From the IMG/VR virus record IMGVR_UViG_3300022562_001240: 56,310 nt of DNA, one strand, 5' to 3'. A model generated the notes under the pieces. It was not told where the DNA came from, did not search any database, and was given only the letters and a program-made list of their open reading frames with translations. The stretch's first letter is position 1; every line of letters begins with the position of its first letter. This document shows, one piece after another, positions 9,190 to 47,666 of this stretch. This stretch comes from a virus. The translations under genes were made by a program, and so were the position numbers.

Positions 9190-9483
9190 CTATGGCTTCT
9201 TGCCATCTACGTCGTAACCCTGTTGTTTCGTCGTCAGCTTAAGATACCCACTGCATCCATCGCCGAGCGGCACACCTTGTTTGCGTGGATCTTGCCCCTT
9301 CTTCTTCACATCTTTCAACCAGTCGGCCAACTCGATATCAATGATCTTGGCGTCTGGGGACTTCTTCTTACAAACATACACGATGTTGCCTTTGTCGTCC
9401 ATGTCTTCATCGAGGTAACGGCACTGTTGGTCGCCGCCCCAGATGTAACAGACATCTTTCAGATGTTTTTGAGTTAGGGCCAT
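9190..9483 (-). CDS. hypothetical protein (97 aa)
   Basis: ATG at 9483 (MALTQKHL...) lies 5 nt after the def stop codon. The longer track ORF begins at a TTG. Confidence 0.4.
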   Translation of the reverse strand: MALTQKHLKDVCYIWGGDQQCRYLDEDMDDKGNIVYVCKKKSPDAKIIDIELADWLKDVKKKGQDPRKQGVPLGDGCSGYLKLTTKQQGYDVDGKKP

Positions 9484-9487
9484 AGTT

Positions 9488-17775: not shown

Positions 17776-18207
17776 TCAGATTTCAATGGTGGACTTGAAG
17801 GTGTTTGTTTCGGGATCAAATTTGAGAGTTGTGATCAATTCCCAGTGCGGGTCGGCCTTCGGGACGTACTCTTTTTGTGTGTAGAACATGGCTTCTATGA
17901 CGAATTCGTACTCTTTTGCCGCCACTTCGTCATCTGACATGCCCGCCAGAAGATCCTCGCACATCTCCCGACAAATCCGGTAGCAATCCGGCATCCGGGC
18001 GCAATGGATCTTGTTCATAACCATCGAAGCCTGAAACGCCTTGTCAATCTTCAGCAGATTGATGATGTCTCGCTTCTCAGGGCCATCGCCGAAAATAGCG
18101 ACGGCAGAGAACTTCGCCATCACCTGCCCAGCTTTCGGGCCGTGCTTGCGGGTGTCGAAGAAATAGTCGTGAAAATTGCTGTCGTCGATGATGACTTCTT
18201 CTGTCAC
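17776..18207 (-). CDS. hypothetical protein (143 aa)
   Basis: Its start overlaps the dnaE fragment stop by 4 nt. Confidence 0.45.
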   Translation of the reverse strand: MTEEVIIDDSNFHDYFFDTRKHGPKAGQVMAKFSAVAIFGDGPEKRDIINLLKIDKAFQASMVMNKIHCARMPDCYRICREMCEDLLAGMSDDEVAAKEYEFVIEAMFYTQKEYVPKADPHWELITTLKFDPETNTFKSTIEI

Positions 18208-21099: not shown

Positions 21100-22128
21100 C
21101 TAGTCGTAATAGTCTGGCGGTACTTCTGGTTTACCGAAGCCTATGTTCCCTTCAAAGTCTTTGTCTTGGACGGGTTCCTTCATTTTCTGAAGGGTCTTGA
21201 TGGCTTCATCGTATTCGTCGCCAATGATCACCACTGCCACAAAGAGTTCTTTAAGGTGGGCCAGCGACATCTCGTCAGTATCCTTTACCCACTGATTTAA
21301 GTCAATGTCGAGTTTGGAGATGTTCTCTTCGCCAATGAGGTGCTTAAAGTAAATCTCTCGTGATTCCGCAGTTGGGAAGCCGATGCGGAATCGTTTGTCG
21401 AATCGACTGGGCCGATTCATGATGCGAGGTTGAAGAGCGTGCGGATAGTTGGTGGTCGCCAAGAATATCGTTTTGTCAACTTCGTTGGCTCCATCAAGGA
21501 GATTTAAGATCTCCGATTCATTGTGCATTTCAAGAAGAGCGTCCAAGTCTTCCATCACAACAACGACTGGCGTGTCTGACTGGATTTGCTTCAGTTTGCG
21601 ATAGCCCTCAACAAAGAGATATGGCTCTTGGAATTCAAGGACCACGCCGCCACGCTTCACCACATCTTGCATGATGAACTGAACGGTGCTGCTCTTGCCG
21701 CTCCCCGGAGGCCCATGAAGAATGATGCCTCTCTTGTAGGTGATGCCATATTCCCTGAAGACATTTTCTCTGTCCCAGAACTTCTGTACTTCGCTGATCA
21801 CACGATCCGACTTTGTGTCAGGAAACCTTAAGAGACCCTCTGTTTTTACAGGAATCTTTTCGAAGAAGATGCCCACGTTGGGGGCACTCTTAATCTCATA
21901 GACTCCCGGCACCAGCCTGTCCACAGTGCGACTGGATGGGACAAAGATGCGATTGTCCGAAGTGGACCATTGACAGTATGTTTGTTCGATATCTTTTTCT
22001 TCTTCATCAACAGAGCAGTTTCCGTAAGCTGGCATAGCATTCCTCCTTGATTTGGCACGGGGAGCCTTCCCCATCTTGTCTAGGGTTCTCAGAGCCTTCC
22101 TGAATCTCTCATCCAAACTTTTAGACAC
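21100..22128 (-). CDS. AAA+ ATPase (classic AAA family)
   Basis: Walker A ILHGPPGSGKSS, Walker B VVVMEDLD, and a sensor-2-like NRPSRFDKR. Confidence 0.8.
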   Translation of the reverse strand: MSKSLDERFRKALRTLDKMGKAPRAKSRRNAMPAYGNCSVDEEEKDIEQTYCQWSTSDNRIFVPSSRTVDRLVPGVYEIKSAPNVGIFFEKIPVKTEGLLRFPDTKSDRVISEVQKFWDRENVFREYGITYKRGIILHGPPGSGKSSTVQFIMQDVVKRGGVVLEFQEPYLFVEGYRKLKQIQSDTPVVVVMEDLDALLEMHNESEILNLLDGANEVDKTIFLATTNYPHALQPRIMNRPSRFDKRFRIGFPTAESREIYFKHLIGEENISKLDIDLNQWVKDTDEMSLAHLKELFVAVVIIGDEYDEAIKTLQKMKEPVQDKDFEGNIGFGKPEVPPDYYD

Positions 22129-27181: not shown

Positions 27182-27928
27182 ATGGGACTATTCCAAGAAT
27201 ACATGGATGCCAAAGGACAGGTGAAGAAGCCTGTCGTTGACATTCATGGAGGCAAACCGACGCCAGCAACACCGCCGACCAAACCGCCCAAAGAACACGG
27301 AAACGCTCCGTACATCGCCAAAGGCGAAAAAGGCGGAAAGAAAGGGTTCGGCGATCTCGGCGACACAAAGTGTAAGTGTGATGGCAAGGAACCCGCTCCA
27401 GCCAAGATTCCAACAGCCGAACATGCCGAAATTGCAGCGTTGGTTACAGACGTGATGCTGAAAGATGGTGCTCTGGTCGAACAACTGGTCTACCAGTTGA
27501 AGAACAAGGGCCTACTGGGCGTTGTGGTCGCAGAGATGTTGACCTACAAGGAGACGTACCAGCATCTCACAGAAATCATGGCTCACGAATCATATGGTCC
27601 CAAGGTTTGCGGCAAGCTCATTCGTGCCATGAACGAAGAAGTTGCCCCACCACTCAGTGCCAGCCTTGAAGGCGAAGACATTGAGGATGACGCAGACGAA
27701 GCCGAGGAAGGCGATGAATTCGACAATGAATTCTCGGGCGACATGGAAGGCATCGATGATGAAGACATTGACATGCAAGACGCCGACTTCGAGATGGACC
27801 CAGCCCAAGCGGCTGATCCCTTGATGATGGACCCGACCATGCAACAACAAGCTCCGGGCCAAGCTCCAATGGCCCCGCCACACGGTCAAGCAATGATGCA
27901 CCTTCAACGTGCAATGATGAGACGCTAA
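27182..27928 (+). CDS. member of the N-terminal-motif family (MGLFQEYMDA...); acidic centre and Met/Pro/Gln-rich tail
   Basis: AAGGAGAAACC ribosome-binding site. N-terminus MGLFQEYMDAKG. C-terminus ...DPTMQQQAPGQAPMAPPHGQAMMHLQRAMMRR. Confidence 0.5.
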   Translation: MGLFQEYMDAKGQVKKPVVDIHGGKPTPATPPTKPPKEHGNAPYIAKGEKGGKKGFGDLGDTKCKCDGKEPAPAKIPTAEHAEIAALVTDVMLKDGALVEQLVYQLKNKGLLGVVVAEMLTYKETYQHLTEIMAHESYGPKVCGKLIRAMNEEVAPPLSASLEGEDIEDDADEAEEGDEFDNEFSGDMEGIDDEDIDMQDADFEMDPAQAADPLMMDPTMQQQAPGQAPMAPPHGQAMMHLQRAMMRR

Positions 27929-28149
27929 TGAATTTCAAACAATGGTTCGAAGAGACTGAAGCAGAAGAACATGCAAAGCGTAAGATGCTTGGCGCAAAGC
28001 GTTATGCTGCCAATAGTCGTTCGGATCATCTGGGACGCCCCAAAGGTGCGACTGTGGGAGGGAACCCACGGTACAGGGGAGGCAAAGGTTGGTGGACCAA
28101 CGTAGGCCCAACCAGAACACAGGACAAACGAGATGAACGAGAAGAGTGA
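27928..28149 (+). CDS. member of the N-terminal-motif family (MNFKQWFEETE...); small basic protein
   Basis: Start overlaps the previous stop in TAATG. N-terminus MNFKQWFEETEAEE. Confidence 0.45.
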   Translation: MNFKQWFEETEAEEHAKRKMLGAKRYAANSRSDHLGRPKGATVGGNPRYRGGKGWWTNVGPTRTQDKRDEREE

Positions 28150-29839: not shown

Positions 29840-31249
29840 TTAAGCTGCATCCGCATGTGGGATCGGCTGCAAGCTGTGTCGAATCTTCATCTGCTTACCG
29901 CCACGAGCCGGGCTCAAGAAACGACTGAATCTCAAGTCGTTGATGATTGGCTCCACATCATGCAATCGCAGGCAGTAAGCCACCAGTGAACCGCAAGCCG
30001 AACCACGGCCCGGACCCACGGCTTCTGAGCCATCGCCGAACCCAACAATGCTGGGGCCGACATGGCGAGCTTCATCTGTCATCTGTTTCTGAATCAGGAA
30101 GTAGCTGGAGAAGCCCTTCTCACAGATCAGGTCGTACTCTTCCCGGATGCGGGATGAGTATTCCTTGGTGGCTGGACAACCTCGGGCCTTGAAGCCTCGC
30201 AGGGTCTCTTGCCATAGAAGGTCATCGGCATCTGGAATCTTCGGGAGCTTGATGTCCCTGTCGATCTCAACGCCCTTTGCTTTCTCACAGATGGCGATGG
30301 TGTTTGCTTTGGCTTGTTTGAAGATCTCGTAGTCGATGATGTCTTTGTACTTCAACTCCCACATGGCGTTGAGTTCGTCTTCTGACTTCAGCCACAGATT
30401 GGTGTCCTGAAGCTCAAAGAGATCATCGGCTTGACCGGAATCGATCATGGCCTGCACTTCTTGAATCGTGCGTTTGTTTTGCTGCATCAGCATGAGTCGC
30501 TGATTGTGACTGTGCTCTTTCTTGATCATCGGGAGACCGTACTTCTCGTGTGCCCGAATGAGGAAGGCGTTGTACGGCCCCTGCATCTTCCAGTCGAGCA
30601 TCATCATTTCAAGGTAGAAGTTGTCTCGACCGAGCATGTCGATGTAGTATTCCAACATTTGGAATCCCGCCTCATCGCCGCCCTCAAAGAAGGCTGTGGC
30701 TATTTCGCTGATGCCACAACCACTGGTGAAAATGATGCCTTCCTTGTGTTCTCGGAGAGCATCATGGTTGATTCGAGGGCGATAGTAGTATCCGTGAATC
30801 CACGCCCACGACGACAACCGAACGAGGTTTTGGTAGCCGATGTTGTTATAGGCAATAGCGAGCAGATGACATGATTTGCGGAAGATCTTCTGCTCTGGTG
30901 TTTGGGCTTTCGTCTCGGCATTGGGATCGCCAAGACTCTTGTAGAACTCAGCCGTATCAGAACGAGTGTTGGATTTGGGCTGCATCCGATTGACATACAA
31001 CTCGCAACCGAACAGCGGGTACAAGTTGTGCTTCTCTGCTTGTTCGATCTGCTGGGGAACTGCGCCCATAACCCCGTGATCGGTAATGCAGAGATACTTC
31101 TGGTTGATCTCCTTCATCCGCTGGGCATACTCCCACACCATGGCAAAGCCATCGAGAAGAGAGAAATCCGAGTGTCGGTGAAGATGCTCAAAGCCCATAA
31201 TCGGATGGTGCATTACTCGTCGCCTTCCTTGGTTCCGTTTTGTTGCCAC
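29840..31249 (-). CDS. dnaE: DNA polymerase III alpha subunit (DnaE-type), N-terminal fragment: PHP domain, thumb and start of the palm
   Basis: 469 aa. FEHLHRHSDFSLLDG and ITDHGVM (PHP motifs), then GPGRGSACGSLVAYCL. It ends at ...DLRFSRFLSPARGG, the position just before the catalytic PDxDxDF that opens the second fragment. Confidence 0.85.
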   Translation of the reverse strand: MATKRNQGRRRVMHHPIMGFEHLHRHSDFSLLDGFAMVWEYAQRMKEINQKYLCITDHGVMGAVPQQIEQAEKHNLYPLFGCELYVNRMQPKSNTRSDTAEFYKSLGDPNAETKAQTPEQKIFRKSCHLLAIAYNNIGYQNLVRLSSWAWIHGYYYRPRINHDALREHKEGIIFTSGCGISEIATAFFEGGDEAGFQMLEYYIDMLGRDNFYLEMMMLDWKMQGPYNAFLIRAHEKYGLPMIKKEHSHNQRLMLMQQNKRTIQEVQAMIDSGQADDLFELQDTNLWLKSEDELNAMWELKYKDIIDYEIFKQAKANTIAICEKAKGVEIDRDIKLPKIPDADDLLWQETLRGFKARGCPATKEYSSRIREEYDLICEKGFSSYFLIQKQMTDEARHVGPSIVGFGDGSEAVGPGRGSACGSLVAYCLRLHDVEPIINDLRFSRFLSPARGGKQMKIRHSLQPIPHADAA

Positions 31250-31428
31250 TGTTCAAAGTCGGCCAGCAACGCTGCTGCCTCTTGATCGATCTCTTTGACG
31301 GCGGCTTTGTGTTGTTCATAGAGCTTGCGGAATTCTGCTTGCATCTCTTTCTTCCGCTCATGGAGAGCGGTGATCTTCCCAGAGAAGTTGGCGAATTCGT
31401 CACTCAGCAGGTGTGCCGTTTGCATCAT
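31213..31428 (-). CDS. hypothetical coiled-coil protein (71 aa)
   Basis: ORF on the dominant strand. Confidence 0.35.
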   Translation of the reverse strand: MMQTAHLLSDEFANFSGKITALHERKKEMQAEFRKLYEQHKAAVKEIDQEAAALLADFEQWQQNGTKEGDE

Positions 31429-31975: not shown

Positions 31976-32659
31976 CTACTCGGTGCTCCTTAAAGAATCA
32001 AGGTCAGGATAATCGCTGCTTCCCAGAATCCCATCTGCCAAACCATAAAAAACGGCTTCTTCGGCTGACATGTACCAATCGACCTCATCTTTAAGTTTGC
32101 GGTCAAAAAATTTGTATGCCGTATCGTAAGTGGCCGTCTTCTTCCTCTTAAAGAATTCTGCTGTTTCTGAGGAAATGGCTTTTTCGGCAAAGATCTGCAA
32201 CATACGCTTGCAGGCCCGCTCTTGGAACTCGGCTTCGTTTTTCAGAGCGTAGGGATGCACCATTGAGCCTCCCGAGTATCCGTGGTGCATCAAGAAGTGG
32301 CAGTCTGGCATCATGATTCTGAGGTCTGCCGCTTGGAAGATGATGCCGCTCATAGAAGATGTCTGGGAGTATCCCAACATTGTGATCTGGCTGACTGCAT
32401 ACTCGATAGAATTGAAAACCGCCATGCCATTGTCCCAGCACCCACCGGCAGAGTGGAGATGGACCAAAATGGGTTTGTTGGGCGACTGATCGAGCAAATG
32501 CAAATTCTTAATAAAAGTCGTGGCTTGCCGGTAATCGACTCCCGGTTCTGACTCGTCGTCCTTGACATAGTAGCTGTGAAGGTAGATTTCCCTTCGATTG
32601 AGATTCACCTGATGATTGTGGATGTCATAAAGAACTTGATCCTTGGACTGACGGGCCAT
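31976..32659 (-). CDS. ClpP-family serine protease (possible prohead / maturation protease)
   Basis: ILVHLHSAGGCWDNGMAVFNSI (cf. ClpP INSPGGSVTAGMAIYD), catalytic Ser in GYSQTSSMSG, His in FLMHHG, and C-terminal AEEAVFYGLADGIL (cf. EAVEYGLVD). Confidence 0.65.
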   Translation of the reverse strand: MARQSKDQVLYDIHNHQVNLNRREIYLHSYYVKDDESEPGVDYRQATTFIKNLHLLDQSPNKPILVHLHSAGGCWDNGMAVFNSIEYAVSQITMLGYSQTSSMSGIIFQAADLRIMMPDCHFLMHHGYSGGSMVHPYALKNEAEFQERACKRMLQIFAEKAISSETAEFFKRKKTATYDTAYKFFDRKLKDEVDWYMSAEEAVFYGLADGILGSSDYPDLDSLRSTE

Positions 32660-32738
32660 TTTTCAGCCTCCTCTTGAGTATTCACTAGGCGGACGACGTA
32701 TTATAAGAAATTCGTCGCCAAACCTACATACTTATGAT

Positions 32739-33212
32739 ATGAACTTCAAGACTTGGATTGAGAACGAAGCCAGTTTAGGCTCTGGAACCCCAGAAATGGG
32801 TGCGATGCCCATGGTTAATAGGGGGAGCGAAACCCCTGCGTCCGATGCGGTTAAGCAAACTGGCCTCCAACCGCAAGTTGATGCCAAAGAGCTTAAGACA
32901 AAATCTCATAAAGAACAAGATGCAATGCTCGCCATTGACTCAGAAATCGAGCACATGGACATGCAAATCCCTGCCGGGGACGATTCTGAGACTCCCAAAC
33001 TGAACCAGTTCAAACAGCTTTGGGACGCTCTGAAAACAGCTTGGGAAGACATCAAGATGAGCGACAATACGCCCGGCGCAGAAGAGGGTGGTCTCGGCAC
33101 CAACATGGGCGACCCGAAGTATCTGGCGATGATGCAGCAGCACCCGAATATGGTCCCCGCAAGCGGCCAAGGTCAGGGACCACATGGTCCGGGCACTTTC
33201 GGTCAGCAGTGA
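32739..33212 (+). CDS. member of the N-terminal-motif family (MNFKTWIENEASLG...); Gly/Gln/Pro/Met-rich tail
   Basis: N-terminus MNFKTWIENE. C-terminus ...YLAMMQQHPNMVPASGQGQGPHGPGTFGQQ. Confidence 0.5.
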   Translation: MNFKTWIENEASLGSGTPEMGAMPMVNRGSETPASDAVKQTGLQPQVDAKELKTKSHKEQDAMLAIDSEIEHMDMQIPAGDDSETPKLNQFKQLWDALKTAWEDIKMSDNTPGAEEGGLGTNMGDPKYLAMMQQHPNMVPASGQGQGPHGPGTFGQQ

Positions 33213-33540: not shown

Positions 33541-33861
33541 TTAGTCTCCCATGATCAGCGATCCGAGATCATCGTCGATGCCAGCAGGCTTGACGTATCC
33601 GGTCGCTTCGAGTTTCTTTTGTGTTCGATAGGCATTCCGAAGACTCATACAACAATCTTCGGCACGATCCCATCCTGCCGTCTTCCAGACATCTTTGAGT
33701 GGGCCGACGTTCTGCCAGCCCTTCTCTGTGAGGTATTCAGCCATCACTTTCTCTTCGGCCTGACGAGCCTCTCGCTTCTTTTCCTTTTGCTTCTCTCGAC
33801 GGCGGGTCTTAGAAGCAGGTTCGTTGGCTCGCTTGGCACGTTGCTTTTTGGTTAGTGTCAT
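33541..33861 (-). CDS. hypothetical protein with a basic N-terminus (106 aa)
   Basis: Lys/Arg-rich N-terminus; overlaps the spoVR stop by 4 nt. Confidence 0.4.
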   Translation of the reverse strand: MTLTKKQRAKRANEPASKTRRREKQKEKKREARQAEEKVMAEYLTEKGWQNVGPLKDVWKTAGWDRAEDCCMSLRNAYRTQKKLEATGYVKPAGIDDDLGSLIMGD

Positions 33862-35459
33862 TTCAGGAAATCCTTCTCATATTGTTCTCTGGACATGATG
33901 TGGACATCACTATCCATGTTCGGACCATCGCAGACCAAGACGTATTCTTCCCCGTCAAGGTTCTGAGATCCCAGAACAACCACATTCTGCCAGATCATGT
34001 GAATTGAAGTGAGAACCTCTGTGGCGTACTTGTGGTACAGCGGTCGTCCATCAGCGTAGTGCTGCATGAAGAACCAGCCTTTGCCCAAGTGGTTCGGGTC
34101 GGTCAACCTGATGTCAGGCAAACCGCCATTACAGTAGCGTTGGAGCATCTGTTTCTTGACTTCCTTGAAATCACGAGACGTGATCTTCCACTCGCCCGTT
34201 GACATGCGGCGGTAGGTGTAATACTGCATCTTCTCGGCGAACTCTGGAGTGAAGAATTCGTTGATCAAGGTGTAGTCGTTGTAATACTTCCTGACTTCGA
34301 AGACCTTCTCCATGCCGAGCCCAAGTTTCTTATCCCACTTGGCCTTCTCCCGCATGTTGGTGCATTCTTCCCATTCCTTGCCGAACTTGCCCTTGTTCCA
34401 TCGATCTTCGATGTCCAAGAGAAGCTCGAAGCCCAGCTTGTATGGGTTCTGACTCCACTGACCTCCCAAGACTCGCATCTTGTGTTCGGCATAGTGCCAG
34501 ATACCAGCCGCTTCATCGTCCTGTCCGAGTGAGGCAAGGCCCTCCCGACAGAGTAGGTGGTAATCGACGAAACTGGCCCAACCTTCATTGATCATCTTCG
34601 TTTGTCGCTGAGGTTGGAAGTACATGGACTCATCATAGAGCATCGAGATGATGTCTTGCTGCCACGGCTTGAGTGGAGCATTATTCTTCAAGAATCCCAT
34701 GATGTCTCGATCAGCACGACCGAACAGGCCAAGGAATTCCGAAGCTTCTTTCTTCTCAATTCTCTCGTGTTCCTTCTCGATGTACGAGTCGGGGTTGACC
34801 CATTCGTCCATGTAGTCATGAGTGGATTTCAAACGTCTGGGAAAATGGTATTTTCTTTCATCCCTGACATTCTTGTTTTCAATCTTCTTTCGCTTCCATG
34901 CCTTCTGAGGATCAATGAGCGTTTCGATTCGCATCACATGGTCGATGAACTCTGTGACACGCTCGCCGCCCCAACGCTTCATGTACTGACGAATTCGAGT
35001 GCTGTGATTCGCCAGCTTGTTCATCATGTTTTCGTCAGTCGGCCCAAAGAAAATGTTGTTCTTGAAGAAGTCGTTGTGGCCGATGGCGTGACAGATAACG
35101 TCCACGTTGTCTACCAACGTGTTCGAGTCCATGCAGTAGATGTAACATGGATTGGTGTTGATCACCATTTCCGAGATACGGTACTGGTTGTATTCGTAAC
35201 CACGACTCATTTCCTCATATTCCATTCCCCACTTCCAGTGTGGGTATCGGACAGGGAAACCGCCGTAGCTGGCAAGCTCAGCCATTTCGTCGTAGCGGAC
35301 AAATTCAACGATGATGGGATAGTAGTCCAACCCCATATCCCTGCAAGCCTTCTCCATCTGAGGAAGCAGTTCCTCCACTTCCTTGTGGATCTTCAGACCG
35401 GGAATGTTGTTGTCACCAACCAGAATTGGTGTCCCGCTCATCATGTTAGATTTTGACAT
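33858..35459 (-). CDS. spoVR: SpoVR-family protein (YcgB-like)
   Basis: 533 aa. ...YPHWKWGMEYEE...NTNPCYIYCMDSNTLVDNVDVICHAIGHNDFFKNN... matches the SpoVR core. Confidence 0.8.
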   Translation of the reverse strand: MSKSNMMSGTPILVGDNNIPGLKIHKEVEELLPQMEKACRDMGLDYYPIIVEFVRYDEMAELASYGGFPVRYPHWKWGMEYEEMSRGYEYNQYRISEMVINTNPCYIYCMDSNTLVDNVDVICHAIGHNDFFKNNIFFGPTDENMMNKLANHSTRIRQYMKRWGGERVTEFIDHVMRIETLIDPQKAWKRKKIENKNVRDERKYHFPRRLKSTHDYMDEWVNPDSYIEKEHERIEKKEASEFLGLFGRADRDIMGFLKNNAPLKPWQQDIISMLYDESMYFQPQRQTKMINEGWASFVDYHLLCREGLASLGQDDEAAGIWHYAEHKMRVLGGQWSQNPYKLGFELLLDIEDRWNKGKFGKEWEECTNMREKAKWDKKLGLGMEKVFEVRKYYNDYTLINEFFTPEFAEKMQYYTYRRMSTGEWKITSRDFKEVKKQMLQRYCNGGLPDIRLTDPNHLGKGWFFMQHYADGRPLYHKYATEVLTSIHMIWQNVVVLGSQNLDGEEYVLVCDGPNMDSDVHIMSREQYEKDFLK

Positions 35460-36454
35460 TACTCGGTTCTCCTCCAGATATCATCCACATCATACGAGAT
35501 ATCTGTAATTAACTCAAGCTCTTCCCGCACTCTTCTTATAGGTTCCGACCAATCTCCTTCGGTCGATTGCCAGAAGAGTTTAACCGTGTCGTACCACATG
35601 GTTGTTTTAGAACGATCCCACAAAGGATTATCGTCGGATTTCATCAATCCAAAAGTTGGTTTGTTCATGGTGCCTGCCAAATGAAGGACAGATGAGTCTG
35701 TCGCAATGACCGCATCCATGGCGTCGATCAAAATTGCCACGTCGTTGAAATCGTATGTTGATGGCATCAACATTGATTCGGTGTTGGGCAAGGTGTAAAT
35801 GTTCCATCCCGATTCTTTAAGGACGGCCATTTGTTCCTCGGGGATTTGTTTGACGTGCAAACCACAAGCGGGCCGATTGGGCTGTATTGCCGCCTCGCCG
35901 TGAGGCAGAATCTCTGGCTGCCAAGGAACTTTGGTCTTCAGAATGACCGATCTGTCGGCGGGATAGTAGTGATCCAACTTGAGGCCACTCAACAGAGCCG
36001 GGATGCACATGATGTTGGTGTGGTAATCGCAAAGGACATGCTGATTGGTGAACTCATCCACGAACCAAACATCTTCCATCAATTTCTTTAAGGCTTCGTA
36101 GGCCGAGTAGCAATTCAGCACGATGCGACATTCCCATTCCCGCTTCAAAGCGGCGAGATATCTAAAGAAATTGATGGTGTTGCCGATGTTGAAGTCCGTG
36201 AACACTTCAATGGACGATCCACGCAGGGACTCCCCCCGCCAGTTGCGGCCAAAGTGTTTGGAAAGGTCTGGACGTGATGCGCCCAGTGTGTCTGAAACAA
36301 TCAGGCTGTAGAGTTCGCCGATGAGTTCGTGACTGGGATCTAATTTGCGGATAACTTCCAACAACTTGACGGCTTTATCGGGCAAGCCGATCCAGTAGTA
36401 GTTGTTGACAGTCGCCAGACCTTGATCAAGATACTGTTTGGAGTCCCGTGCCAT
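35459..36454 (-). CDS. GT9-like glycosyltransferase (heptosyltransferase family), paralog C
   Basis: VIATDSSVLHLAGTMNKPTFGL matches the GT9 D-SG-MHLA-A-G-P motif better than paralogs A and B do. Confidence 0.5.
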   Translation of the reverse strand: MARDSKQYLDQGLATVNNYYWIGLPDKAVKLLEVIRKLDPSHELIGELYSLIVSDTLGASRPDLSKHFGRNWRGESLRGSSIEVFTDFNIGNTINFFRYLAALKREWECRIVLNCYSAYEALKKLMEDVWFVDEFTNQHVLCDYHTNIMCIPALLSGLKLDHYYPADRSVILKTKVPWQPEILPHGEAAIQPNRPACGLHVKQIPEEQMAVLKESGWNIYTLPNTESMLMPSTYDFNDVAILIDAMDAVIATDSSVLHLAGTMNKPTFGLMKSDDNPLWDRSKTTMWYDTVKLFWQSTEGDWSEPIRRVREELELITDISYDVDDIWRRTE

Positions 36455-37289
36455 GAATGCTGTCCCTCAACTCTCGAATTTCCTGATGCGTCGGATCGTC
36501 GCTTTCATCGAGATTGACAAGGAACTCGTCGGACACTTCTGGCCTTCCGCCCTTGGGATAGCAGAAAATGTTCAACGAATTGCCTGCATTCAAGACATCC
36601 ACCTTGTGATACTTGAAGTTGTCTGGATTGTAGACAGGAGTTTCATGCAACTCCCAGTCATAACCCACATGCTCCACGAATCTCAAAATGTCTTCCCTGT
36701 TGTCGGCAAAGTTCACATACAACAGAGGGGTGGACCTATCGATGGTGCGACGGCAACCATTCAGTACAGAAAGCTCCATGCCCTGCACTGACACCTTAAT
36801 CAACTTGGGCTTCGCCAAGTTGACATCATCGATGGCAATTGATGCTACCGGATTATCACATTTACGTCCATCTCGGTCCTTGGCATTCAACAATGTCGCC
36901 AAGCTGATTTGTGATAGATCGACTTCACCATTGATGTCAACCGATGGGAAGTAACAGACGCCTTTGCTGGAATCTGTCACCGAACGGTTGAATGCTTGGA
37001 TGTTGGTGATCTGGTTGAGAGCGATGTTGCCGCACAACATGAAGTACAGGAACGTGTGAGCCTCAATTGCCAAGACGTAACCCTCTGAGGTAACGTGCTT
37101 CGCCAAAGGAATCGTGATCGATCCAATGTTGGCCCCAACATCAACGACCACATCACCCTTGTCAGTCAGCTTCTTCAAGAATTCTACCTTGAAAGAATTG
37201 ACTTCTCCGTAGGTGTCCAGAGAACGACCTACCAATTGATCGTTCTCTAAGAACATCATGTCTCCATACTTCGTGCTGCTGACTTTCAT
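36426..37289 (-). CDS. FkbM-family methyltransferase, copy 1
   Basis: VVDVGANIGSITIPLA plus the family-typical downstream architecture. Paralog of 52872-53705. Confidence 0.65.
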   Translation of the reverse strand: MKVSSTKYGDMMFLENDQLVGRSLDTYGEVNSFKVEFLKKLTDKGDVVVDVGANIGSITIPLAKHVTSEGYVLAIEAHTFLYFMLCGNIALNQITNIQAFNRSVTDSSKGVCYFPSVDINGEVDLSQISLATLLNAKDRDGRKCDNPVASIAIDDVNLAKPKLIKVSVQGMELSVLNGCRRTIDRSTPLLYVNFADNREDILRFVEHVGYDWELHETPVYNPDNFKYHKVDVLNAGNSLNIFCYPKGGRPEVSDEFLVNLDESDDPTHQEIRELRDSIHGTGLQTVS

Positions 37290-38530
37290 GCTGCTGCCTC
37301 TCTCTTATCGTTTTCTTTGCCCAAGATCTTACGGATGGCTTCGATGATCTGCTCGTTGCGATCTTCTTCGCTGAGATTGGGGGCATAACCCCAGTTCCCG
37401 AATCCGAAGTTCCCATCATCGTTATCCGATTCATCGGGGCCGACATTGGCCGTCTCGATATAAGAAGAGTCCAACTTTCCGCCTTTTAGGGCGTTGTCGA
37501 GGTGTTGTTTCACACTATCTTCGTATCTCCAAGAACAAACCTGCGTCATGCCCAACAGATTAACCTTGCTGGGACCGAGTTCTTCTTTGATGATCTTGAT
37601 CATCCGGCTGTTGTCGTCGCCCCAGTTGTCACCATCTGAGAAGTAGAAGATGTAGACGTTGTACTTCTCTGGCGGATATCTGTTTTCCAACTGATCCGCA
37701 ATGGCCCGGAACGCCGACGAACACATTGTTCCACCACCATAACGATAGGTGTAGAACGCCTCTTCGTTGACTTCCTGTGCTCTGGTGTCGTGGACAAAGT
37801 AGCAACGATCCACCTTGTCATAGAATTTTCTGATCCAGCAGTCGATCCACCAACTCATGTCGCTGACAATATCGCAGCGATAGTCGTCCATCGACGCCGA
37901 GCAGTCTCGGGCGAAGAAGATGACAGCATTCGAGGAAGGAATCTTGATCTGTTTGTACTGTCGATATCTGAAGTCGTTGTTGATGGGCGTCAGCAATCGA
38001 ACTGGCACCTTGCAGCCCGGCACCCACTGGAGGTTCTCCAGTTCGCCGGTCATCGACAATCGCTTCAGTGCTTCCTTCATCGTTCGACGAGGATGGCGCA
38101 ACGCTTGCAAACCGACCCGAGAGATATCGTTGTACTTGATCTTGATCTCTTCGTAGGTTTCATTGGGCTTGGGCCTCATGCGAGGCAACTTCAGTTCGTC
38201 CTGCATGAACCGCAGAACGTCATCCATATCGATAGTGATCTGGATGCCTTCACCGGGATCTTCCCCAGCTTTGTTGCCACCCTTGCCCGGTTGTGGGTCT
38301 CGCCCAACAACGTCGCCTTCTTTTCCCGGCCCACGACCGACACCTTCCCCGTTGCTTCCAAACACGAAGCGAGGAATCTCGATCTGCGGGATAGAGATCG
38401 TCATCTTGCCGCCCTTGGGCCGCTGACGAACGATGGACCCCGACTTGATCAGTCTTTTCAATTCACGTCGGGTGCGTCCAGAGATCACATCTCTGAACTT
38501 CTTATGATCTTCTTGGATTCTCTTTGGCAT
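37286..38530 (-). CDS. yhbH: YhbH/YeaH-family protein (DUF444, vWA-like)
   Basis: N-terminal FRDVISGRTRRELKRLIKSG...ISIPQIEIPRFVFG, then a Gly-rich segment, then DCSASMDD and FSDGDNWGDD. Confidence 0.75.
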   Translation of the reverse strand: MPKRIQEDHKKFRDVISGRTRRELKRLIKSGSIVRQRPKGGKMTISIPQIEIPRFVFGSNGEGVGRGPGKEGDVVGRDPQPGKGGNKAGEDPGEGIQITIDMDDVLRFMQDELKLPRMRPKPNETYEEIKIKYNDISRVGLQALRHPRRTMKEALKRLSMTGELENLQWVPGCKVPVRLLTPINNDFRYRQYKQIKIPSSNAVIFFARDCSASMDDYRCDIVSDMSWWIDCWIRKFYDKVDRCYFVHDTRAQEVNEEAFYTYRYGGGTMCSSAFRAIADQLENRYPPEKYNVYIFYFSDGDNWGDDNSRMIKIIKEELGPSKVNLLGMTQVCSWRYEDSVKQHLDNALKGGKLDSSYIETANVGPDESDNDDGNFGFGNWGYAPNLSEEDRNEQIIEAIRKILGKENDKREAAA

Positions 38531-38610
38531 GATGCTCCCCTTGTGTAAGAAAAGAGGGCGATAGCGGTAGAGTAACGATCAACCACCACTACCGCCCCCA
38601 ACGTCCGTCA

Positions 38611-40695
38611 TTACTCGGAGACATCGCCTCTGGCAAAGATGCTGCTCACATAATCGAGCACATCAGTAGCCGACTGCTGGTTGTATCCGCACTGCTTAAT
38701 CAATCGAGTCTTGATGGCATCGATCTTTTCTTGCAGATCGGGGTCCAACTCGGCAGCTTCTTTTGTCAAAGCCGACAACTTGATCGTGTCTTTGACATCT
38801 TCAAAGACCTTGGCTTCAAGAGCCCGCTTCAACTCAGGATTGCTGTCCCAGCGGAACTTTTTGTCCCGAGAAGCCAGCGTGCCGATAAAGGCGGCGAGCG
38901 AACGTCGGAAGTCGTCACAACCCTGTTCGGGGATGCCGTTCTTCTCTTCAATGCTACGCATCAGTCGCTCGTCGGGGTCCATGAGGTTGCCCGTAATCGG
39001 GTTCTCCATCTTCTCGTCATTGACGTAGGCGATCACGTTGTCAACGTATTTGTTGCACAGTCGTTCAATGGCCTTCTCATCGGCGACGAGAGCACGTTGG
39101 ACCTCGTTTTTCAGGATTTCGTCGAGTTCCTTGATTGCCAATTCGACACAGAACTCATACTTCTTCCTGTCCTCCACCTTGGTAATCAGCGACGAGTGAC
39201 CCAAACCTTCCTTGATTTCGCTGAGCACATGGAACACGTTCACATAATGCTTGCGGCGAGCCAATTGGTTCGAGATCTTGTCCTGCACATATCGTGCAGA
39301 CACGCCACCGATCATACCTTCATCTGGGAACTTGTCCCGAAGCTCCTTCACGGTATCTTCGGTCCAGCCCGGAAGCTGACGGCCATCATAAAGTTTGGCC
39401 TTGTCCCGCAGATCGAGTTTCCCCTCACCGTCATCGTGTAAACGAGTCAGAATGGCGAAGAAAGCAGCGATCTCCAAAGTATGTGGCATGATGTGTTGCT
39501 TGACTTTTCCGGGACCATACAGGTGTTCCAGAATCTTCTGCTCATCCGACCAGCGAAGCAGGTACGGCACATCCACCTTGACGGTTCGGTCACGAAGAGC
39601 TTCCATGAACTGGTTGTTCTTGAGCTTTTCGTACTCGGGGTTGTTCGTGTGAGCAATGATCAACTCATCGATCACAATCTGAGGGAACTTCTTCGGCTTG
39701 ATCTGGTGCTCTTGAGACGCTCCCAGAAGATCGTAGAGAAATGCGTTGTCGAGCTTCAACATTTCGATGAATTCACAGATGCCTCGGTTGGCAACTTGGA
39801 ATTCGCCGTCGAAGTCGAAAGCACGAGGATCTGAGTCGGCCCCGAAGTGGCCGATCTTGCGATAGTTCATATCGCCGGTGAGTTCCGTGCTGTCCTGATT
39901 CTTCTCGTCCTTGGGCTGGAATGTTCCGATGCCCACACGATCCGTTTCAGAGTGACATCTGCGGACCACCACGATGTGGTTGTCGATGACCTTCTGCCAA
40001 TCCCCATCATAGGTCTTGAGCAGGTGGTTCAAGAACAGCTTGCAGCGGGGATTGATCTCTCCCTCACAGATCAGCTTGTAGAGACTGTCCTTGTCGTCAT
40101 CACTCGCCATGTCTGTGAACGTGGCGTTGAGATCCTTCAAGAACTCCTGCCGCATGGGAATCGGCATCAGCTTCAAAGGATTTTCGTTGAGAGCCGCATC
40201 GCAGGTGTCATTCAGGTAGATCGCATTCTGCCCTTCGAAGGGAAGATTGACCCACTTGTAAGTGTACCATGCACCAGCATTGGTGCGGCTGTAGCGTTCC
40301 AGACCTCTCTTCAAGAGGCGGCAGATGGTGGATTTCGACGAACCCACCGGACCATGCAGCAAGAGCACACGCTTCTCGGTTCCATAAGAACCGGCTGCAC
40401 CGTGAATGAAATCGACAAGACCCTGAAGAGTCTTCTCTTCCAATCCGAAGATCGGAAGGGTGTCGTCGTCGAAGAAGTGGTATCTGGTGTGTGTCTTTCG
40501 ATAACGCTCGAAAGTGCTGGTGCCCTTTTCCATGATCATGTCATAGACATATTGGAAAGCGTTACGGGCCAGCGTTGGCCGCTTCATGACCAAGTTCAGG
40601 TAGTCGCCATACGACATTTCTTCGTTCAAGGCGAGAAACTGTTCTCGATCATAAAGTTCAGCGTACTTGCTTAAGAAAGTAGTTGTGTTCTCCAT
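38611..40695 (-). CDS. prkA: PrkA-family serine protein kinase (YeaG-like, AAA-type N-domain)
   Basis: 694 aa. Walker A LLLHGPVGSSKSTI and PrkA-like organisation throughout. Confidence 0.8.
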   Translation of the reverse strand: MENTTTFLSKYAELYDREQFLALNEEMSYGDYLNLVMKRPTLARNAFQYVYDMIMEKGTSTFERYRKTHTRYHFFDDDTLPIFGLEEKTLQGLVDFIHGAAGSYGTEKRVLLLHGPVGSSKSTICRLLKRGLERYSRTNAGAWYTYKWVNLPFEGQNAIYLNDTCDAALNENPLKLMPIPMRQEFLKDLNATFTDMASDDDKDSLYKLICEGEINPRCKLFLNHLLKTYDGDWQKVIDNHIVVVRRCHSETDRVGIGTFQPKDEKNQDSTELTGDMNYRKIGHFGADSDPRAFDFDGEFQVANRGICEFIEMLKLDNAFLYDLLGASQEHQIKPKKFPQIVIDELIIAHTNNPEYEKLKNNQFMEALRDRTVKVDVPYLLRWSDEQKILEHLYGPGKVKQHIMPHTLEIAAFFAILTRLHDDGEGKLDLRDKAKLYDGRQLPGWTEDTVKELRDKFPDEGMIGGVSARYVQDKISNQLARRKHYVNVFHVLSEIKEGLGHSSLITKVEDRKKYEFCVELAIKELDEILKNEVQRALVADEKAIERLCNKYVDNVIAYVNDEKMENPITGNLMDPDERLMRSIEEKNGIPEQGCDDFRRSLAAFIGTLASRDKKFRWDSNPELKRALEAKVFEDVKDTIKLSALTKEAAELDPDLQEKIDAIKTRLIKQCGYNQQSATDVLDYVSSIFARGDVSE

Positions 40696-40802: not shown

Positions 40803-41060
40803 TTAAGAAATCGACTTCAAAACAGAAGGCACAGTCATTGGTCTGTTGGGTCCGAGGCCCGGACCAGCAGGACGTGCGGGCTTCGTTGCTTTTGGCCCAG
40901 CTTTCATCATGTTTCTGATGGCATCGCCTCGACCCATACCAAATGGTGGTTTCACATCTTTGATCATCAGCTTGAAGATGTTCTTTTCGCCACCAGCTTT
41001 TCCGACTGGGCCGTAGAGACCATGAAGTTCTTCGTTCTGTAAGAATTCCTTAAACCTCAT
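40803..41060 (-). CDS. member of the N-terminal-motif family (MRFKEFLQNEELHG...); Pro/Gly/Lys-rich tail
   Basis: GAGGATGA ribosome-binding site. Start overlaps the previous stop in ATGA. Confidence 0.45.
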   Translation of the reverse strand: MRFKEFLQNEELHGLYGPVGKAGGEKNIFKLMIKDVKPPFGMGRGDAIRNMMKAGPKATKPARPAGPGLGPNRPMTVPSVLKSIS

Positions 41061-41428
41061 GACTTTTTCATCCTCTTCAACATCATCTTCTTCATGCCGA
41101 ACATCTTCGGTTTCGGAATCTTCAAACCTTGAATGGGGGAATCGAGAGACATCTTGAAAGCGACGTTGCCAGCATTGGTCGCACCACCAATCTTCGGCGG
41201 AACAATCTTATCCATGCCCCAGCCCACATCCTTCAAGAATGTTTTGTTCAATGAAGATGGGTTCCCAGAAAGATCCATCCAGTTTGTTTGACGGTCGGAG
41301 AACTTGGGTGACTGTTGAAGAAATTGCGAAGACTTCTCCGTCGCCTGACTCGTTTGAGTGGCTTGATTATCACGGGTTCCGTCAGAACCCACTTCGATCT
41401 CATTGTACAGCCATGCCTTAAATCTCAT
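41057..41428 (-). CDS. member of the N-terminal-motif family (MRFKAWLYNEIEVG...); Met/Lys-rich tail
   Basis: Start placed at the ATG at 41428 by analogy with the other family members. The longer track ORF begins at a GTG at 41491. Confidence 0.4.
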   Translation of the reverse strand: MRFKAWLYNEIEVGSDGTRDNQATQTSQATEKSSQFLQQSPKFSDRQTNWMDLSGNPSSLNKTFLKDVGWGMDKIVPPKIGGATNAGNVAFKMSLDSPIQGLKIPKPKMFGMKKMMLKRMKKS

Positions 41429-41952: not shown

Positions 41953-41984
41953 GAAAAGCCGCCAGAAATGGCGGCTTTTTTCAT
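41953..41984. terminator. bidirectional rho-independent terminator between convergent genes
   Basis: AAAAGCCGCC-AGAAAT-GGCGGCTTTTTT: a GC stem with U/A tracts on both sides. Confidence 0.6.
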
Positions 41985-43351
41985 TACTTAAGGAACCCAG
42001 TTGTGCTCAACCCATCCATCAAAGGAGCACACAAAACCTCCGGGACAATATCCGCCCCGACGATATCCGACTTCTTGTAGTCCGCTCCCTTTACCAGCAC
42101 GTCTGGCCGGATCTCCTTAATAATCTCCAAAGGTGTGTCCTCGTCGAAAGATACGACGAAATCGACCATCTCCAGAGCCGCCATGACCTTCATTCGTTGG
42201 TCCAATGGCTTCAGAGGCCGCTCAGGGCCTTTCAGACGCTTCACAGAATCGTCCGAGTTCAATGCCACGACCAGCTTGTCTCCTTGGCTCTTAGCGAACC
42301 TGAGCGTCTCCAGATGGCCTTCGTGGAGGATGTCGAAGCAACCGTTGGTAAAGACCAGCTTGAAATCTCGGCTGGCGAGATCAAGCCCGTTTTCGACCAA
42401 GCCCCGGTGGGCCATCTCGGCTGGGACAATGGGCCGGTTCATCTTGTTCTGGACGTAGACGGCTCCAGCCGTCCATGCGATCTCTGCCGCCTCTGGGACC
42501 GAGAATCCGTGCCCAATCGCCATCGCAAAAGTTGCACAGAAACAATCGCCAGCCCCAATCACACTCTCTACCTCCACGGTTCGAGTGGGGTTAAAGCAGA
42601 AGAACTCGTCGTGCCAGACTCCCGCCACCTTCTCGCCGCCGAACGTAATCACAACGCCTTCACACTCGGTTTCGTTCTGCAAATGTTTGGCCTGTTCTCG
42701 CCATGTGCTGCGACCAGTCAGATCTGCGGCCTCTTTGGCGTTTGGCTTCAAAATCGTGCAACCTCGCCATTTGCTCAATGGCCCATTCTTTGGATCAACG
42801 ATGGTTGTGACATCATGATAGAAATCGAGGATGCTGTGTTCCTCGCTGGCGAAGAAACCTTTGTTATAGTCTGACAGAATGGCGACATCTGGCTTGGACG
42901 ACTTAGCGATCACGCTCTCAAGATGTTCTGTGACAAAATCAAGCAGATATTCGTCGAGGCCACAGTTGGGTGATTCGATATCGTGTCGCACGACTTGGAC
43001 GCCGCCATCGAGGAAACGTCGTTTGATTGGGAGGCTTGCTTCGATACCACTGAAAGGGGCACAGGTCCATGACAAGCCATGTTCATCAAAAACCCTTGCT
43101 GCTTTGTCATCATAGAAACAAAACAGCAAGGGATCGACATTGAAGTGTTTGAATTGGTAAGCGACATTCGCTGCGCCGCCCGGCTTCCGCACACGCTGGG
43201 AATGCGGGGACCACATGATCGGCATGGGAAACTCGGGACTGATGCGATTGACCTTCACTTCATAGTATTCGTCGATCATTGCATCGCCGAGCACATGAAT
43301 CTTAAGATTCTGGCTCCTGTTCTTTTGTAGAAAGGTCTGGATGTGACTCAT
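41984..43351 (-). CDS. hldE: bifunctional D-glycero-beta-D-manno-heptose-7-phosphate kinase / heptose-1-phosphate adenylyltransferase
   Basis: 455 aa. N-terminal pfkB kinase (KPGGAANVA, GAGDCFCA). C-terminal cytidylyltransferase (TNGCFDILHEGH, DYKKSDIVG). Collinear with E. coli HldE. Confidence 0.85.
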   Translation of the reverse strand: MSHIQTFLQKNRSQNLKIHVLGDAMIDEYYEVKVNRISPEFPMPIMWSPHSQRVRKPGGAANVAYQFKHFNVDPLLFCFYDDKAARVFDEHGLSWTCAPFSGIEASLPIKRRFLDGGVQVVRHDIESPNCGLDEYLLDFVTEHLESVIAKSSKPDVAILSDYNKGFFASEEHSILDFYHDVTTIVDPKNGPLSKWRGCTILKPNAKEAADLTGRSTWREQAKHLQNETECEGVVITFGGEKVAGVWHDEFFCFNPTRTVEVESVIGAGDCFCATFAMAIGHGFSVPEAAEIAWTAGAVYVQNKMNRPIVPAEMAHRGLVENGLDLASRDFKLVFTNGCFDILHEGHLETLRFAKSQGDKLVVALNSDDSVKRLKGPERPLKPLDQRMKVMAALEMVDFVVSFDEDTPLEIIKEIRPDVLVKGADYKKSDIVGADIVPEVLCAPLMDGLSTTGFLK

Positions 43352-45007: not shown

Positions 45008-45225
45008 CAGTCAGTTCCTCTTCTGAAGATCAAGCTTGCCACCCATCCCAGAATCATGCCAACCAGCAATGACAGAGGCGCAGCAAGATACAACCACACA
45101 ACAACATATGCCCCGCCAATTGACGGGTCTTGTTCTGCGGCAGCCCCGCCAGCATTTTGCAGCCATATCCAAGAGCCAAGCAGGCCCAACAGACCACCGC
45201 AAACAACAAACAGAAACTCTCTCAT
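45007..45225 (-). CDS. small membrane protein (2 TM helices)
   Basis: Two hydrophobic helices. Sits between folA and thyA, overlapping each by 1-4 nt. Confidence 0.4.
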   Translation of the reverse strand: MREFLFVVCGGLLGLLGSWIWLQNAGGAAAEQDPSIGGAYVVVWLYLAAPLSLLVGMILGWVASLIFRRGTD

Positions 45226-46088
45226 ACAGCCACCGGAATTTCCAGCTTCGGCCCACTCTCGAATTCTGAGATCACGAACGAGTCAGGCGTGTAGCTGTAG
45301 ATGTCTGCCGCCTTCTCGATCTCCAACTTAGGAGACGGAATCTCTGGCAGAGTGAGATACTCGGCGACAGCATCCATCTGATCTTCATAGATGTGGCTGT
45401 CGTGGGTTTCGTGGACGAACTCATAAGGAATACAGTCCGTCTGCTGGGCCAACATCACAGTCAATGCACTGTAGAATTGGATGTTGGCCGGGACGCCGAT
45501 TGGGAAGTCACAGGATCGCTGCGTCATGATCCCGGTCAGGCGTCGGTCATCGTCGATGAGAACCTGATAGCCGTAGTGACACGGCGGGAGCCGCATCTCT
45601 GCGACATCGTTCGGGTTCCACAGTGACCATAAAGTTCGGCGGCAGCTTGGATCTTCCTTGATCCTATTCACGACCCAATCAAGTTGGTCGAATCCACCTC
45701 GACCGTAGGCCGCATTTTCAATTCCTTTGTTGTAGCTGCCGCCGAAATGTCTCAACTGAAAACCATAGACTGGACCGAACGAGTTCTTCTCAAACCCGTG
45801 CTTCTTCTCGAAGTTTTCATCCACCCACGGAGTCCAAAAATTGCAACCGAGAGCCTTGAGTGTTTCGTTGTTGGTACTGCCGCTGATGAACCAGAGAAGT
45901 TCTGAGAAGACAGACTTCGGCCACACCTTTCGCTTGGTGAGGATGGGAAAGCGATCTGTGTCCAGACGGTATCGCTTCAGCATCCCAAAGACTGACTTGG
46001 TGCGAATGCCCGTTCGCTTGTTTGTTCTCCAAACACCTTGCTCCATGATTTCTTTAAGAGCGTCATCGTAGGGCTGCATCAAGTACAT
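45222..46088 (-). CDS. thyA: thymidylate synthase (ThyA type)
   Basis: ...RTGIRTKSVFG...FPILTKRKV...ELLWFISGSTN... and the remainder of the ThyA fold. Confidence 0.85.
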   Translation of the reverse strand: MYLMQPYDDALKEIMEQGVWRTNKRTGIRTKSVFGMLKRYRLDTDRFPILTKRKVWPKSVFSELLWFISGSTNNETLKALGCNFWTPWVDENFEKKHGFEKNSFGPVYGFQLRHFGGSYNKGIENAAYGRGGFDQLDWVVNRIKEDPSCRRTLWSLWNPNDVAEMRLPPCHYGYQVLIDDDRRLTGIMTQRSCDFPIGVPANIQFYSALTVMLAQQTDCIPYEFVHETHDSHIYEDQMDAVAEYLTLPEIPSPKLEIEKAADIYSYTPDSFVISEFESGPKLEIPVAV

Positions 46089-47303: not shown

Positions 47304-47666
47304 ATGCCAATCTACGAATTCGAATGTAATGAATGTCATGAAAAGTTTGACGACTTGGTAACTATGAGCAAAGCTGAAACGTGCCCAGACACCAAGTGTC
47401 CAAAATGCGAATCCAAAAATTGGACTAAGCTTGTAAGCTGCCCCAATTTCATGTTCACCAACCCGGTAGGCACTGACCGGTGGAACAGCAGTTCCTCCGG
47501 TCATGACTATCGCTTCAAACACAACATCCCAAAGGTGAAGGCCGAGCGTGAGATGGCCGAGCAACTGTCGCACATGGGTTCGAATCCCTATGGTGATACC
47601 TCGGACAAAGACATCCAGATGGACACCGGAATTCACGACGCCGACTCAAGGCCGGGCCTAAGCTGA
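47304..47666 (+). CDS. FmdB-family zinc-ribbon protein
   Basis: MPIYEFECNECHEKFD...CPKCES is the FmdB pattern YE(Y/F)xCxxC...CPxC. Confidence 0.5.
   Translation: MPIYEFECNECHEKFDDLVTMSKAETCPDTKCPKCESKNWTKLVSCPNFMFTNPVGTDRWNSSSSGHDYRFKHNIPKVKAEREMAEQLSHMGSNPYGDTSDKDIQMDTGIHDADSRPGLS

Follow-up and report, generated by a model that had tools for sequence, protein, structure and literature searches.

The window analysed here, a 56,310-nucleotide stretch of viral DNA (IMG/VR record IMGVR_UViG_3300022562_001240), carries on its minus strand an open reading frame (ORF) of 227 amino acids (31976..32659) whose product resembles the protease ClpP. Diverging from it across a 79-bp intergenic spacer (32660..32738), the plus strand encodes a 157-residue protein (32739..33212) with the N-terminus MNFKTWIENE, one of several proteins in the window that share an N-terminal motif. 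A first-pass annotation had read the larger ORF as a ClpP-type protease on the strength of its TSSMSG and MHHG segments, had proposed that it serves in prohead or scaffold maturation, and had taken its position beside the motif-bearing gene as support for the motif being a proteolytic tag. The identification as ClpP is borne out, and the spacer is exactly as long as was stated. The proposed role is contradicted for the phage lineage to which the window belongs, where the gene lies in a nonstructural block, is patchily distributed, and coexists with a head protease of the S77 type.

The ClpP-like gene and its product

The ORF begins with ATG, and a Shine-Dalgarno-like GGAGG can be read directly from the sequence 7 nt 5ʹ of this codon (32667..32671, minus strand). 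The encoded protein is a single stand-alone domain of the ClpP family of serine peptidases (MEROPS S14). It matches the Pfam profile CLP_protease (PF00574) at E 2.4e-19, scoring 70.3 bits (cut-off, 20.2) over positions 25-180 of 182. Residues were mapped onto E. coli ClpP, using a reference sequence that was checked and is identical to PDB 1TYF. In this alignment, the catalytic residues Ser97, His122, and Asp171 correspond to Ser102 within TSSMSG (codon 32354..32356), His125 within MHHG (32285..32287), and Asp194 within DWYMSAEEAVFYGL (EVDWYMSAEEA; 32078..32080), all on the minus strand. The aspartate is an addition to the first-pass annotation, and the segment that bears it aligns as the counterpart of the C-terminal ClpP block ERDxFLSAxEAxEYGL. 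All three residues are unchanged throughout a 33-sequence alignment spanning 46-86% identity (alignment A1), as they are in 66 distinct sequences drawn from two unrelated genomic contexts.

An AlphaFold2 (AF2) model built on alignment A1 has a predicted local distance difference test score (pLDDT) of 89.7 and includes a long helix at residues 136-163, the handle helix. When this model was searched with Foldseek, the top 50 matches were all ClpPs, with target-normalised template modelling (TM) scores of 0.71-0.84; the best PDB matches were cellular ClpPs (TM ~0.75-0.84), as were the closest PDB matches by sequence. With E. coli ClpP (1TYF) and P. aeruginosa ClpP2 (7M1L/9NDJ), the protein has a common fold (Foldseek E ~1e-12, target-normalised TM ~0.8), and it resembles cellular ClpP in its triad positions, handle helix, Gly-rich strand region, and C-terminal xDxxLSAxEAxxYGL block. 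Structure prediction had been suggested as a way of telling phage prohead proteases from host ClpP. It yielded a confident model whose top matches are cellular ClpPs, but fold searches of this type did not separate a "host-type" from a "head-type" ClpP. As judged from sequence and model, the product is a ClpP-fold Ser-His-Asp peptidase, and its intact triad indicates that it is probably catalytically competent.

The protein also differs from canonical ClpP in several respects. Its identity to cellular ClpPs is only 20-24%, and it misses the NCBIfam equivalog and subfamily cut-offs (TIGR00493, 39.1 versus 308.6; PRK00277, 53.2 versus 249; PRK12553, 61.2 versus 228). The N-terminus is shorter than that of E. 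coli ClpP and, in a sequence-level test, lacks the axial-loop/gate motif ALVPMVIE; across alignment A1, it varies in both length and sequence. At the position equivalent to E. coli Arg170, the protein has Val193, and the family has Val, Ser, or Gly but never Arg. Six of the eight docking-pocket positions of E. coli ClpP remain hydrophobic (Leu65, Phe/Tyr87, Leu95, Val/Ile115, Met117, and Leu212), while the other two are altered, with Tyr62 replaced by an invariant His67 and Met92 by an invariant Tyr97. Extra insertions relative to cellular ClpP occur at residues 31-40 and ~165-185. The family-specific invariant residues are His28, His67, and Trp75; His14 is invariant in alignment A1 and replaced by Asn in a few members of group B, one of the genomic contexts described below.

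Distribution and genomic context of the family

The 203 close homologues of the protein are all ~220-235 residues long. A profile search of 1.84 billion representative sequences returned 328 clusters with E<=1e-30, of which the top 150 measure 145-261 residues and contain no fusions to scaffold or capsid domains, and the family is therefore a stand-alone one. Only four contigs of metagenome-assembled genomes (MAGs) encode a member among 185,579 species genomes, so the family is essentially restricted to phages, and in this near-confinement to phage contigs it is unlike cellular ClpP. In the phage collection searched, no match exceeded 66 bits. The best among cultured phages was to cluster E mycobacteriophages (Cjw1 gp102 and Czyszczon1 gp102; tblastn E 1e-10, 96% coverage, 25% identity), in which a likewise stand-alone ClpP-like gene lies beside SSB and DnaQ-like replication genes. 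Cluster E genomes have a separate capsid maturation protease (gp12) between the portal and capsid genes. These phages are, however, siphoviruses of ~75 kb with an HK97-type head module, whereas the phage considered here is a huge phage with a T4-type core.

Genomic context was surveyed at 80 IMG/VR loci encoding ClpP relatives; when their ORFs were clustered, the loci fell into three groups (A, B, and C). Group A has 37 loci, with ClpP identities of 43-100%; its genes follow the order PrkA - DUF444 - (glycosyltransferase) - SpoVR - ClpP - (71-aa protein) - DnaE-N on one strand. The more distant members of this group, more than 25 divergent loci with ClpP at 43-51% identity, retain ClpP immediately after SpoVR on the same strand, and DnaE-N lies downstream of ClpP in 27 loci. 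At one locus (L018), an ORF ~1.1 kb downstream of ClpP (8410..9111) is weakly similar to the capsid protein of the window's lineage (tblastn E 2e-6 over 107 aa). Group C consists of five loci with a context of unknown function. In group B and C phages, ClpP occurs without PrkA or SpoVR nearby.

Group B comprises L037 and L040-L082. In L048 (9483..16255), for example, ClpP lies directly upstream of TerL, and beyond come a portal-sized ORF and a protein of ~500 residues. The ~500-residue protein of this group has a C-terminal coiled coil and an N-terminal domain with invariant His101, His109, Ser172, and Ser231 that has no detectable homology. Such a protein could be a fusion of a protease with a scaffold, as far as its sequence goes; when a 504-aa representative was examined as a hidden fusion of this kind, Pfam, PHROGs, and PDB profile searches gave coiled-coil matches only. 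No head genes are common to group B and the lineage of the window, the only shared genes being a GDP-mannose dehydratase and an HNH endonuclease.

The presence of ClpP is patchy even within the conserved gene block. Among 43 loci anchored on SpoVR, ClpP lies downstream in 30, and seven loci extend to DnaE-N without it. The same is seen in LR756511.1, an uncultured phage genome of 595,163 bp that was reached via two unannotated ORFs of the window. This genome has homologues of 29 of the window's 86 ORFs, nearly all in one colinear stretch of ~42 kb (324.9-366.6 kb) that includes PrkA, DUF444, SpoVR, DnaE, bS21, and IF3; an AAA gene (21100..22128 in the window) is kept as well. No ClpP family member is present in the whole of LR756511.1, where the best tblastn match (E = 1.1) is spurious and falls inside an unrelated 949-aa ORF. 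The ClpP gene is accessory and dispensable within the lineage.

In the window itself, the minus strand encodes, all by Pfam assignment, PrkA (38611..40695; AAA_PrkA E 9e-74), DUF444/YeaH (37286..38530), an FkbM-type methyltransferase (36426..37289), a GT9-like gene (35459..36454), and SpoVR (33858..35459). PrkA-DUF444/YeaH-SpoVR (33858..40695), a bacterial stress- and sporulation-associated triad here found on a phage, is complete in all relatives examined, and the methyltransferase and GT9-like genes are inserted between DUF444 and SpoVR in the window's clade. Beyond ClpP, a small helical conserved protein of 71 residues (31213..31428, minus strand) is often found before DnaE-N; it has tblastn matches in 23 ClpP loci and is also found without ClpP in L191 and L210. 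It is followed by the N-terminal part of DNA polymerase III alpha (29840..31249, minus strand), which comprises the PHP domain and the start of the DnaE core (Pfam PHP E 4e-38, DNA_pol3_alpha). The polymerase gene is split, with the break inside DNA_pol3_alpha and the second part ~8.7 kb away (18204..21086, minus strand). DnaE in LR756511.1 is a single ORF of 1,183 residues, and in L002 the same region holds an intein with a LAGLIDADG domain. A split intein was considered as the cause in the window, where no intein-like junction was seen.

Further window genes include those for thymidylate synthase, GlpX, dCMP deaminases, MazG, an HldE-like enzyme, bS21, peptide deformylase, and IF3, and the gene content as a whole is that of an uncultivated "huge phage." The translation-related genes (IF3, bS21, and peptide deformylase) lie at 2008..2544, 9190..9513, and 9488..10003, and auxiliary metabolic genes lie at 2558..4195, 41984..43351, 45222..46088, 51874..52875, and 50765..51844, all on the minus strand. 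The auxiliary set consists of a thiamine pyrophosphate (TPP)-dependent enzyme, an HldE-like sugar kinase/adenylyltransferase, thymidylate synthase, a GlpX-type fructose-1,6-bisphosphatase, and a vWA-domain protein. Head genes flank bS21 in previously described phages that encode this protein (PMC9723584), whereas no recognisable head genes adjoin it in the window; the neighbouring ORFs of 376 and 395 residues, considered as candidate head proteins, have neither a PHROG nor a PDB sequence match. No structural genes were recognised among the window ORFs scanned. Likewise, scans of the larger window ORFs with Pfam or PHROGs gave no other protease candidate, as the first-pass annotation had noted for maturation proteases. 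An identical ClpP is also encoded on a contig of 238,888 bp, and no close DNA relative came up among 50,697 phage records searched by megablast with 24 kb of the window.

Head module, N-terminal motif, and divergent spacer

The head genes of the lineage are found in LR756511.1, in which a T4-like module is arranged as a portal-sized ORF, an S77 protease, a scaffold-like ORF, and a gp23-type capsid protein. The capsid protein was detected at E 1e-30 with a T4 gp23 query and matches Pfam Gp23 at E 2.5e-86. The protease, a 222-aa ORF at 525953..526621, matches Peptidase_S77, the family of T4 gp21, at E 2.5e-27, and matches across the lineage range from E ~1e-25 to 1e-27. A search of IMG/VR with this S77 protein returned 260 relatives, and two of the contigs also bear the ClpP gene. 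On IMGVR_UViG_3300023179_000009 (458,813 bp), ClpP (66% identical to that of the window) lies at ~115 kb and S77 at ~440 kb; IMGVR_UViG_3300047160_036266 (343,421 bp) likewise carries both. Each of the two has the full portal-S77-scaffold-gp23 order, and the distance from ClpP to the head module exceeds 200 kb. Additionally, in the sample from which the window comes (3300015263), contigs bearing the head module have a GC content of 0.503, compared with 0.500 for the window, a match that is only suggestive in tying them to the same phage.

The N-terminal motif, M-x-F-[KR]-x-[WF]-[LFMIV]-x-x-E, is a consensus of 43 distinct N-termini whose codons vary synonymously. Six ORFs of the window begin with it, position 7 being Leu, Ile, or Phe: 27928..28149 and 32739..33212 on the plus strand and, on the minus strand, two tandem pairs at 40803..41060 with 41057..41428 and at 47658..48077 with 48077..48643. 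The group A loci contain 25 motif ORFs, and LR756511.1 contains 11; not one was found in group B, over 615 kb of loci. By this sequence evidence, the motif is real and lineage-specific, and its presence in a genome that lacks ClpP together with its absence from group B phages that have ClpP makes it independent of ClpP.

What the motif does is suggested by one of its bearers. The 139-aa protein encoded at 47658..48077 (minus strand) aligns as MGFKEWLLKE|VGTSTGDIAGFRRISIPMWRR, and capsid proteins of the lineage align to it as ...QRLMNE|AMTDTGDIAQFKRISIPLVRR. In this alignment, Glu10 of the tag falls on the capsid Glu that stands just before the gp23 N-arm, ~50 residues from the start of the precursor, a position that by analogy is presumed to be where T4-type propeptide cleavage would be expected. 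Residues 11-38 of the protein (VGTSTGDIAGFRRISIPMWRRMWPPMV) are homologous to the gp23-type capsid N-arm just after this presumed site, and by its sequence the protein looks like a truncated, tagged paralogue of the capsid protein. Another motif ORF, of 1,076 residues and beginning MEFREWFRSAE, lies two ORFs downstream of the capsid gene in LR756511.1 (516905..520135, minus strand; L095 16905..20135), a position consistent with a packaged head protein.

The capsid-targeting sequence (CTS) of T4 reads MKTYQEFIAE. It resembles the lineage tag in being a 10-residue N-terminal sequence with a terminal Glu and with an i, i+3 pair of aromatic residues before an Ile or Leu, and differs from it in that the tag consensus is F-K/R-x-W/F-L-x-x-E. 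The first ten residues of T4 internal protein III are such a sequence, with residues 4 and 7 serving in targeting and residues 8 and 10 in processing, and gp21-type proteases cleave after Glu (PMC9026906). By this analogy, it is plausible that M-x-F-K-x-W-L-x-x-E is a CTS-like capsid-targeting or propeptide tag, with cleavage predicted after the Glu, and the enzyme that removes it would most likely be the S77 protease. The earlier reading of the motif as a proteolytic tag thereby gains independent support from the alignment of Glu10 with the capsid propeptide Glu, but that same alignment implicates S77 and not ClpP.

The pairing of ClpP with a divergent motif gene also has a narrow distribution. 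The 157-aa neighbour, at most a putative functional partner of ClpP, has no Pfam, PHROG, or NCBIfam match. In L002-L007, ClpP has a homologue of it upstream (35-67% identity), and the divergent pairing is confined to the closest group A clade (L001-L007 and a few more). Two other loci, L189 and L191 (SpoVR 70-71% identical), keep the motif gene with no adjacent ClpP; in L191, a different gene is divergent to it. The claim that position ties ClpP to the motif is not supported: motif proteins persist in LR756511.1, which lacks ClpP, and in L189 and L191 the motif gene stands without ClpP beside it.

The spacer between the two genes contains a TATAAT on the ClpP strand, and the palindrome CGACG-N14-CGTCG that was originally pointed out is present (32694..32698 and 32713..32717). 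It occurs at chance level: the spacer has three 5-bp inverted repeats against 1.7 expected, 27% of shuffled sequences reach three, and 82% of the window's 79-bp tiles have at least one. The palindrome is not present in the equivalent spacers of five relatives (L002, L003, L005, L006, and L007) and was rejected as an operator on both grounds. A consensus scan called no sigma-70-type promoter in 32660..32738. No T4-late-type TATAAATA box was found in the window, nor was any prominent 5ʹ of the LR756511.1 head genes.

Role of the ClpP-like protein

The explanation that we favour, and regard as somewhat better than an even bet, is that this phage-restricted, catalytically competent, stand-alone ClpP peptidase is an accessory cytoplasmic protease of a huge-phage lineage and neither matures capsids nor removes tags. 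The lineage appears to be one of uncultivated huge phages with T4-like head genes that encode PrkA/YeaH/SpoVR, bS21, IF3, and DnaE. Because it has its own T4-type head protease, ClpP is very unlikely to be its capsid maturation enzyme. What a maturation role would ascribe to ClpP is most probably done by the counterpart of the T4 gp21/CTS system, as the S77 gene of the lineage has a scaffold-like ORF and gp23 beside it. In neither fold nor sequence is the ClpP-like protein related to S77. Cluster E mycobacteriophages, with a ClpP-like gene apart from their maturation protease, offer a precedent for the favoured explanation. Huge phages that encode a ClpP of their own in addition to a head protease are known from a survey of jumbo phages (Atu_ph07 and phage G; Iyer et al. 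2021), although ClpX, ClpA, or ClpS is often co-encoded there and none was seen here, and although their ClpPs are only distantly similar in sequence to the one in the window. In such surveys, ClpP is patchy and has been read as serving proteostasis or host-directed proteolysis (PMC7824862; PMC6102473).

Several observations weigh against this explanation, and most of them speak for the ClpP-like protein being the protease that matures proheads or scaffold, or else an additional head protease, that enters proheads and trims the M-x-F-K-x-W-L-x-x-E tags. In group B (~40 loci), whose ClpP is 40-46% identical, an ERCC4 nuclease gene stands on one side of ClpP and, on the other, TerL, a portal-like ORF, the ~500-aa coiled-coil protein, and head proteins; no other recognisable protease was found in these loci, and the homologue may have a morphogenetic role in those phages. 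The best PHROG matches, from a collection that carries no curated cut-offs, are annotated "head maturation protease" (PHROG 94, 133, and 2976; E 1e-15 to 2e-13) and run slightly ahead of the "ATP-dependent protease" PHROGs, and the NCBIfam family Clp_rel_HeadMat (NF045542) is matched at E 1.4e-13. ClpP was detected together with ClpX in phage G virions by mass spectrometry, and ~7-10 close relatives keep ClpP and a motif gene as a divergent pair. Moreover, that the window's own phage has an S77 protease is something we infer from relatives and from the same-sample contigs with matching GC. Finally, no Clp ATPase or unfoldase was found among the window ORFs scanned, and that a host ClpX or ClpA docks on the protein is an assumption, because the gate motif and Arg170 are absent, Tyr62 is replaced by His, and the window supplies no unfoldase.

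Even so, a maturation role is quite improbable for the protein encoded in the window. The gene lies outside the head module of its lineage, and S77 is found on the same contigs; LR756511.1, colinear but without ClpP, retains both the motif proteins and the head module, while L189 and L191 have the motif gene and no ClpP. The Clp_rel_HeadMat score is 51.1 bits against a cut-off of 120. The head proteases of this family and of the PHROGs have an S14-type catalytic domain in common with the ClpP-like family, but their usual place is between the portal gene and the capsid gene, and many are extended by scaffold or capsid sequences (profile lengths 394-668); the ClpP-like family measures 195-261 aa and is stand-alone, with no C-terminal scaffold- or capsid-binding extension in any part of it. 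The terminal Glu of the tag, aligned with the capsid propeptide site, fits gp21-type specificity, and cleavage after Glu is not a known preference of ClpP peptidases.

Two further alternatives place the protein in the cytoplasm and differ in how its substrates would be chosen. It could be the proteolytic arm of PrkA-YeaH-SpoVR, with PrkA, for example, selecting or unfolding substrates, in a four-gene unit that reprograms host stress or starvation physiology. The AAA domain of PrkA and the conserved placement of ClpP right after SpoVR fit this scheme, but colinearity extends over the entire region throughout the lineage, and the adjacency may therefore be no more than inherited synteny. PrkA-DUF444-SpoVR occurs without ClpP in LR756511.1 and at least seven loci, the group B and C phages have the converse, and PrkA is not known to partner with ClpP; we hold a proteolytic PrkA unit to be very unlikely. 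Alternatively, the peptidase could lack a gate and need no unfoldase, much like ClpP deregulated by acyldepsipeptides (ADEP), and degrade nascent or unfolded host proteins indiscriminately, leading to host shut-off and amino-acid recycling. The absent pore/gate motif with its variable N-terminus, the constant lack of Arg170, the failure to find a phage unfoldase in the window, and the confinement of the family to phage-like contigs all point in this direction. The case is purely sequence-based, however, and the largely retained docking pocket (Leu65, Leu95, Tyr97, Met117, and Leu212) is compatible with unfoldase docking; we hold a gate-less ClpP of this kind to be unlikely. The broader proposition that the protein is a gate-less, unfoldase-independent phage ClpP, acting either as a deregulated cytoplasmic protease or as the proteolytic arm of the AAA+ protein PrkA with YeaH and SpoVR, is a long shot as well. 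If it were true, huge phages would possess a four-gene unit of their own making for proteolysis and signalling, not recognised before, with which they take over host stress physiology.

As an accessory cytoplasmic protease, the ClpP-like protein would form rings of the ClpP kind inside infected cells, where its degradation of proteins or peptides would serve proteostasis, host takeover, or the recycling of amino acids. A host Clp unfoldase may assist it; alternatively, since the protein lacks the canonical N-terminal gate motif, it may need none. The N-terminal tags would be CTS-like propeptides of the T4 kind, cut after Glu by the S77 protease.

This analysis adds another ClpP-like protease to those of phages, from a subfamily that is well populated (328 clusters) but unstudied. 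In huge phages with T4-like heads, such ClpP genes are accessory and separate from capsid maturation, a distinction that matters for annotation because labels transferred in the manner of PHROGs would miscall the gene a "head maturation protease." If the reading of the N-terminal motif as a capsid-targeting tag is confirmed, the proteins that uncultivated huge phages package and eject would become predictable from sequence alone.

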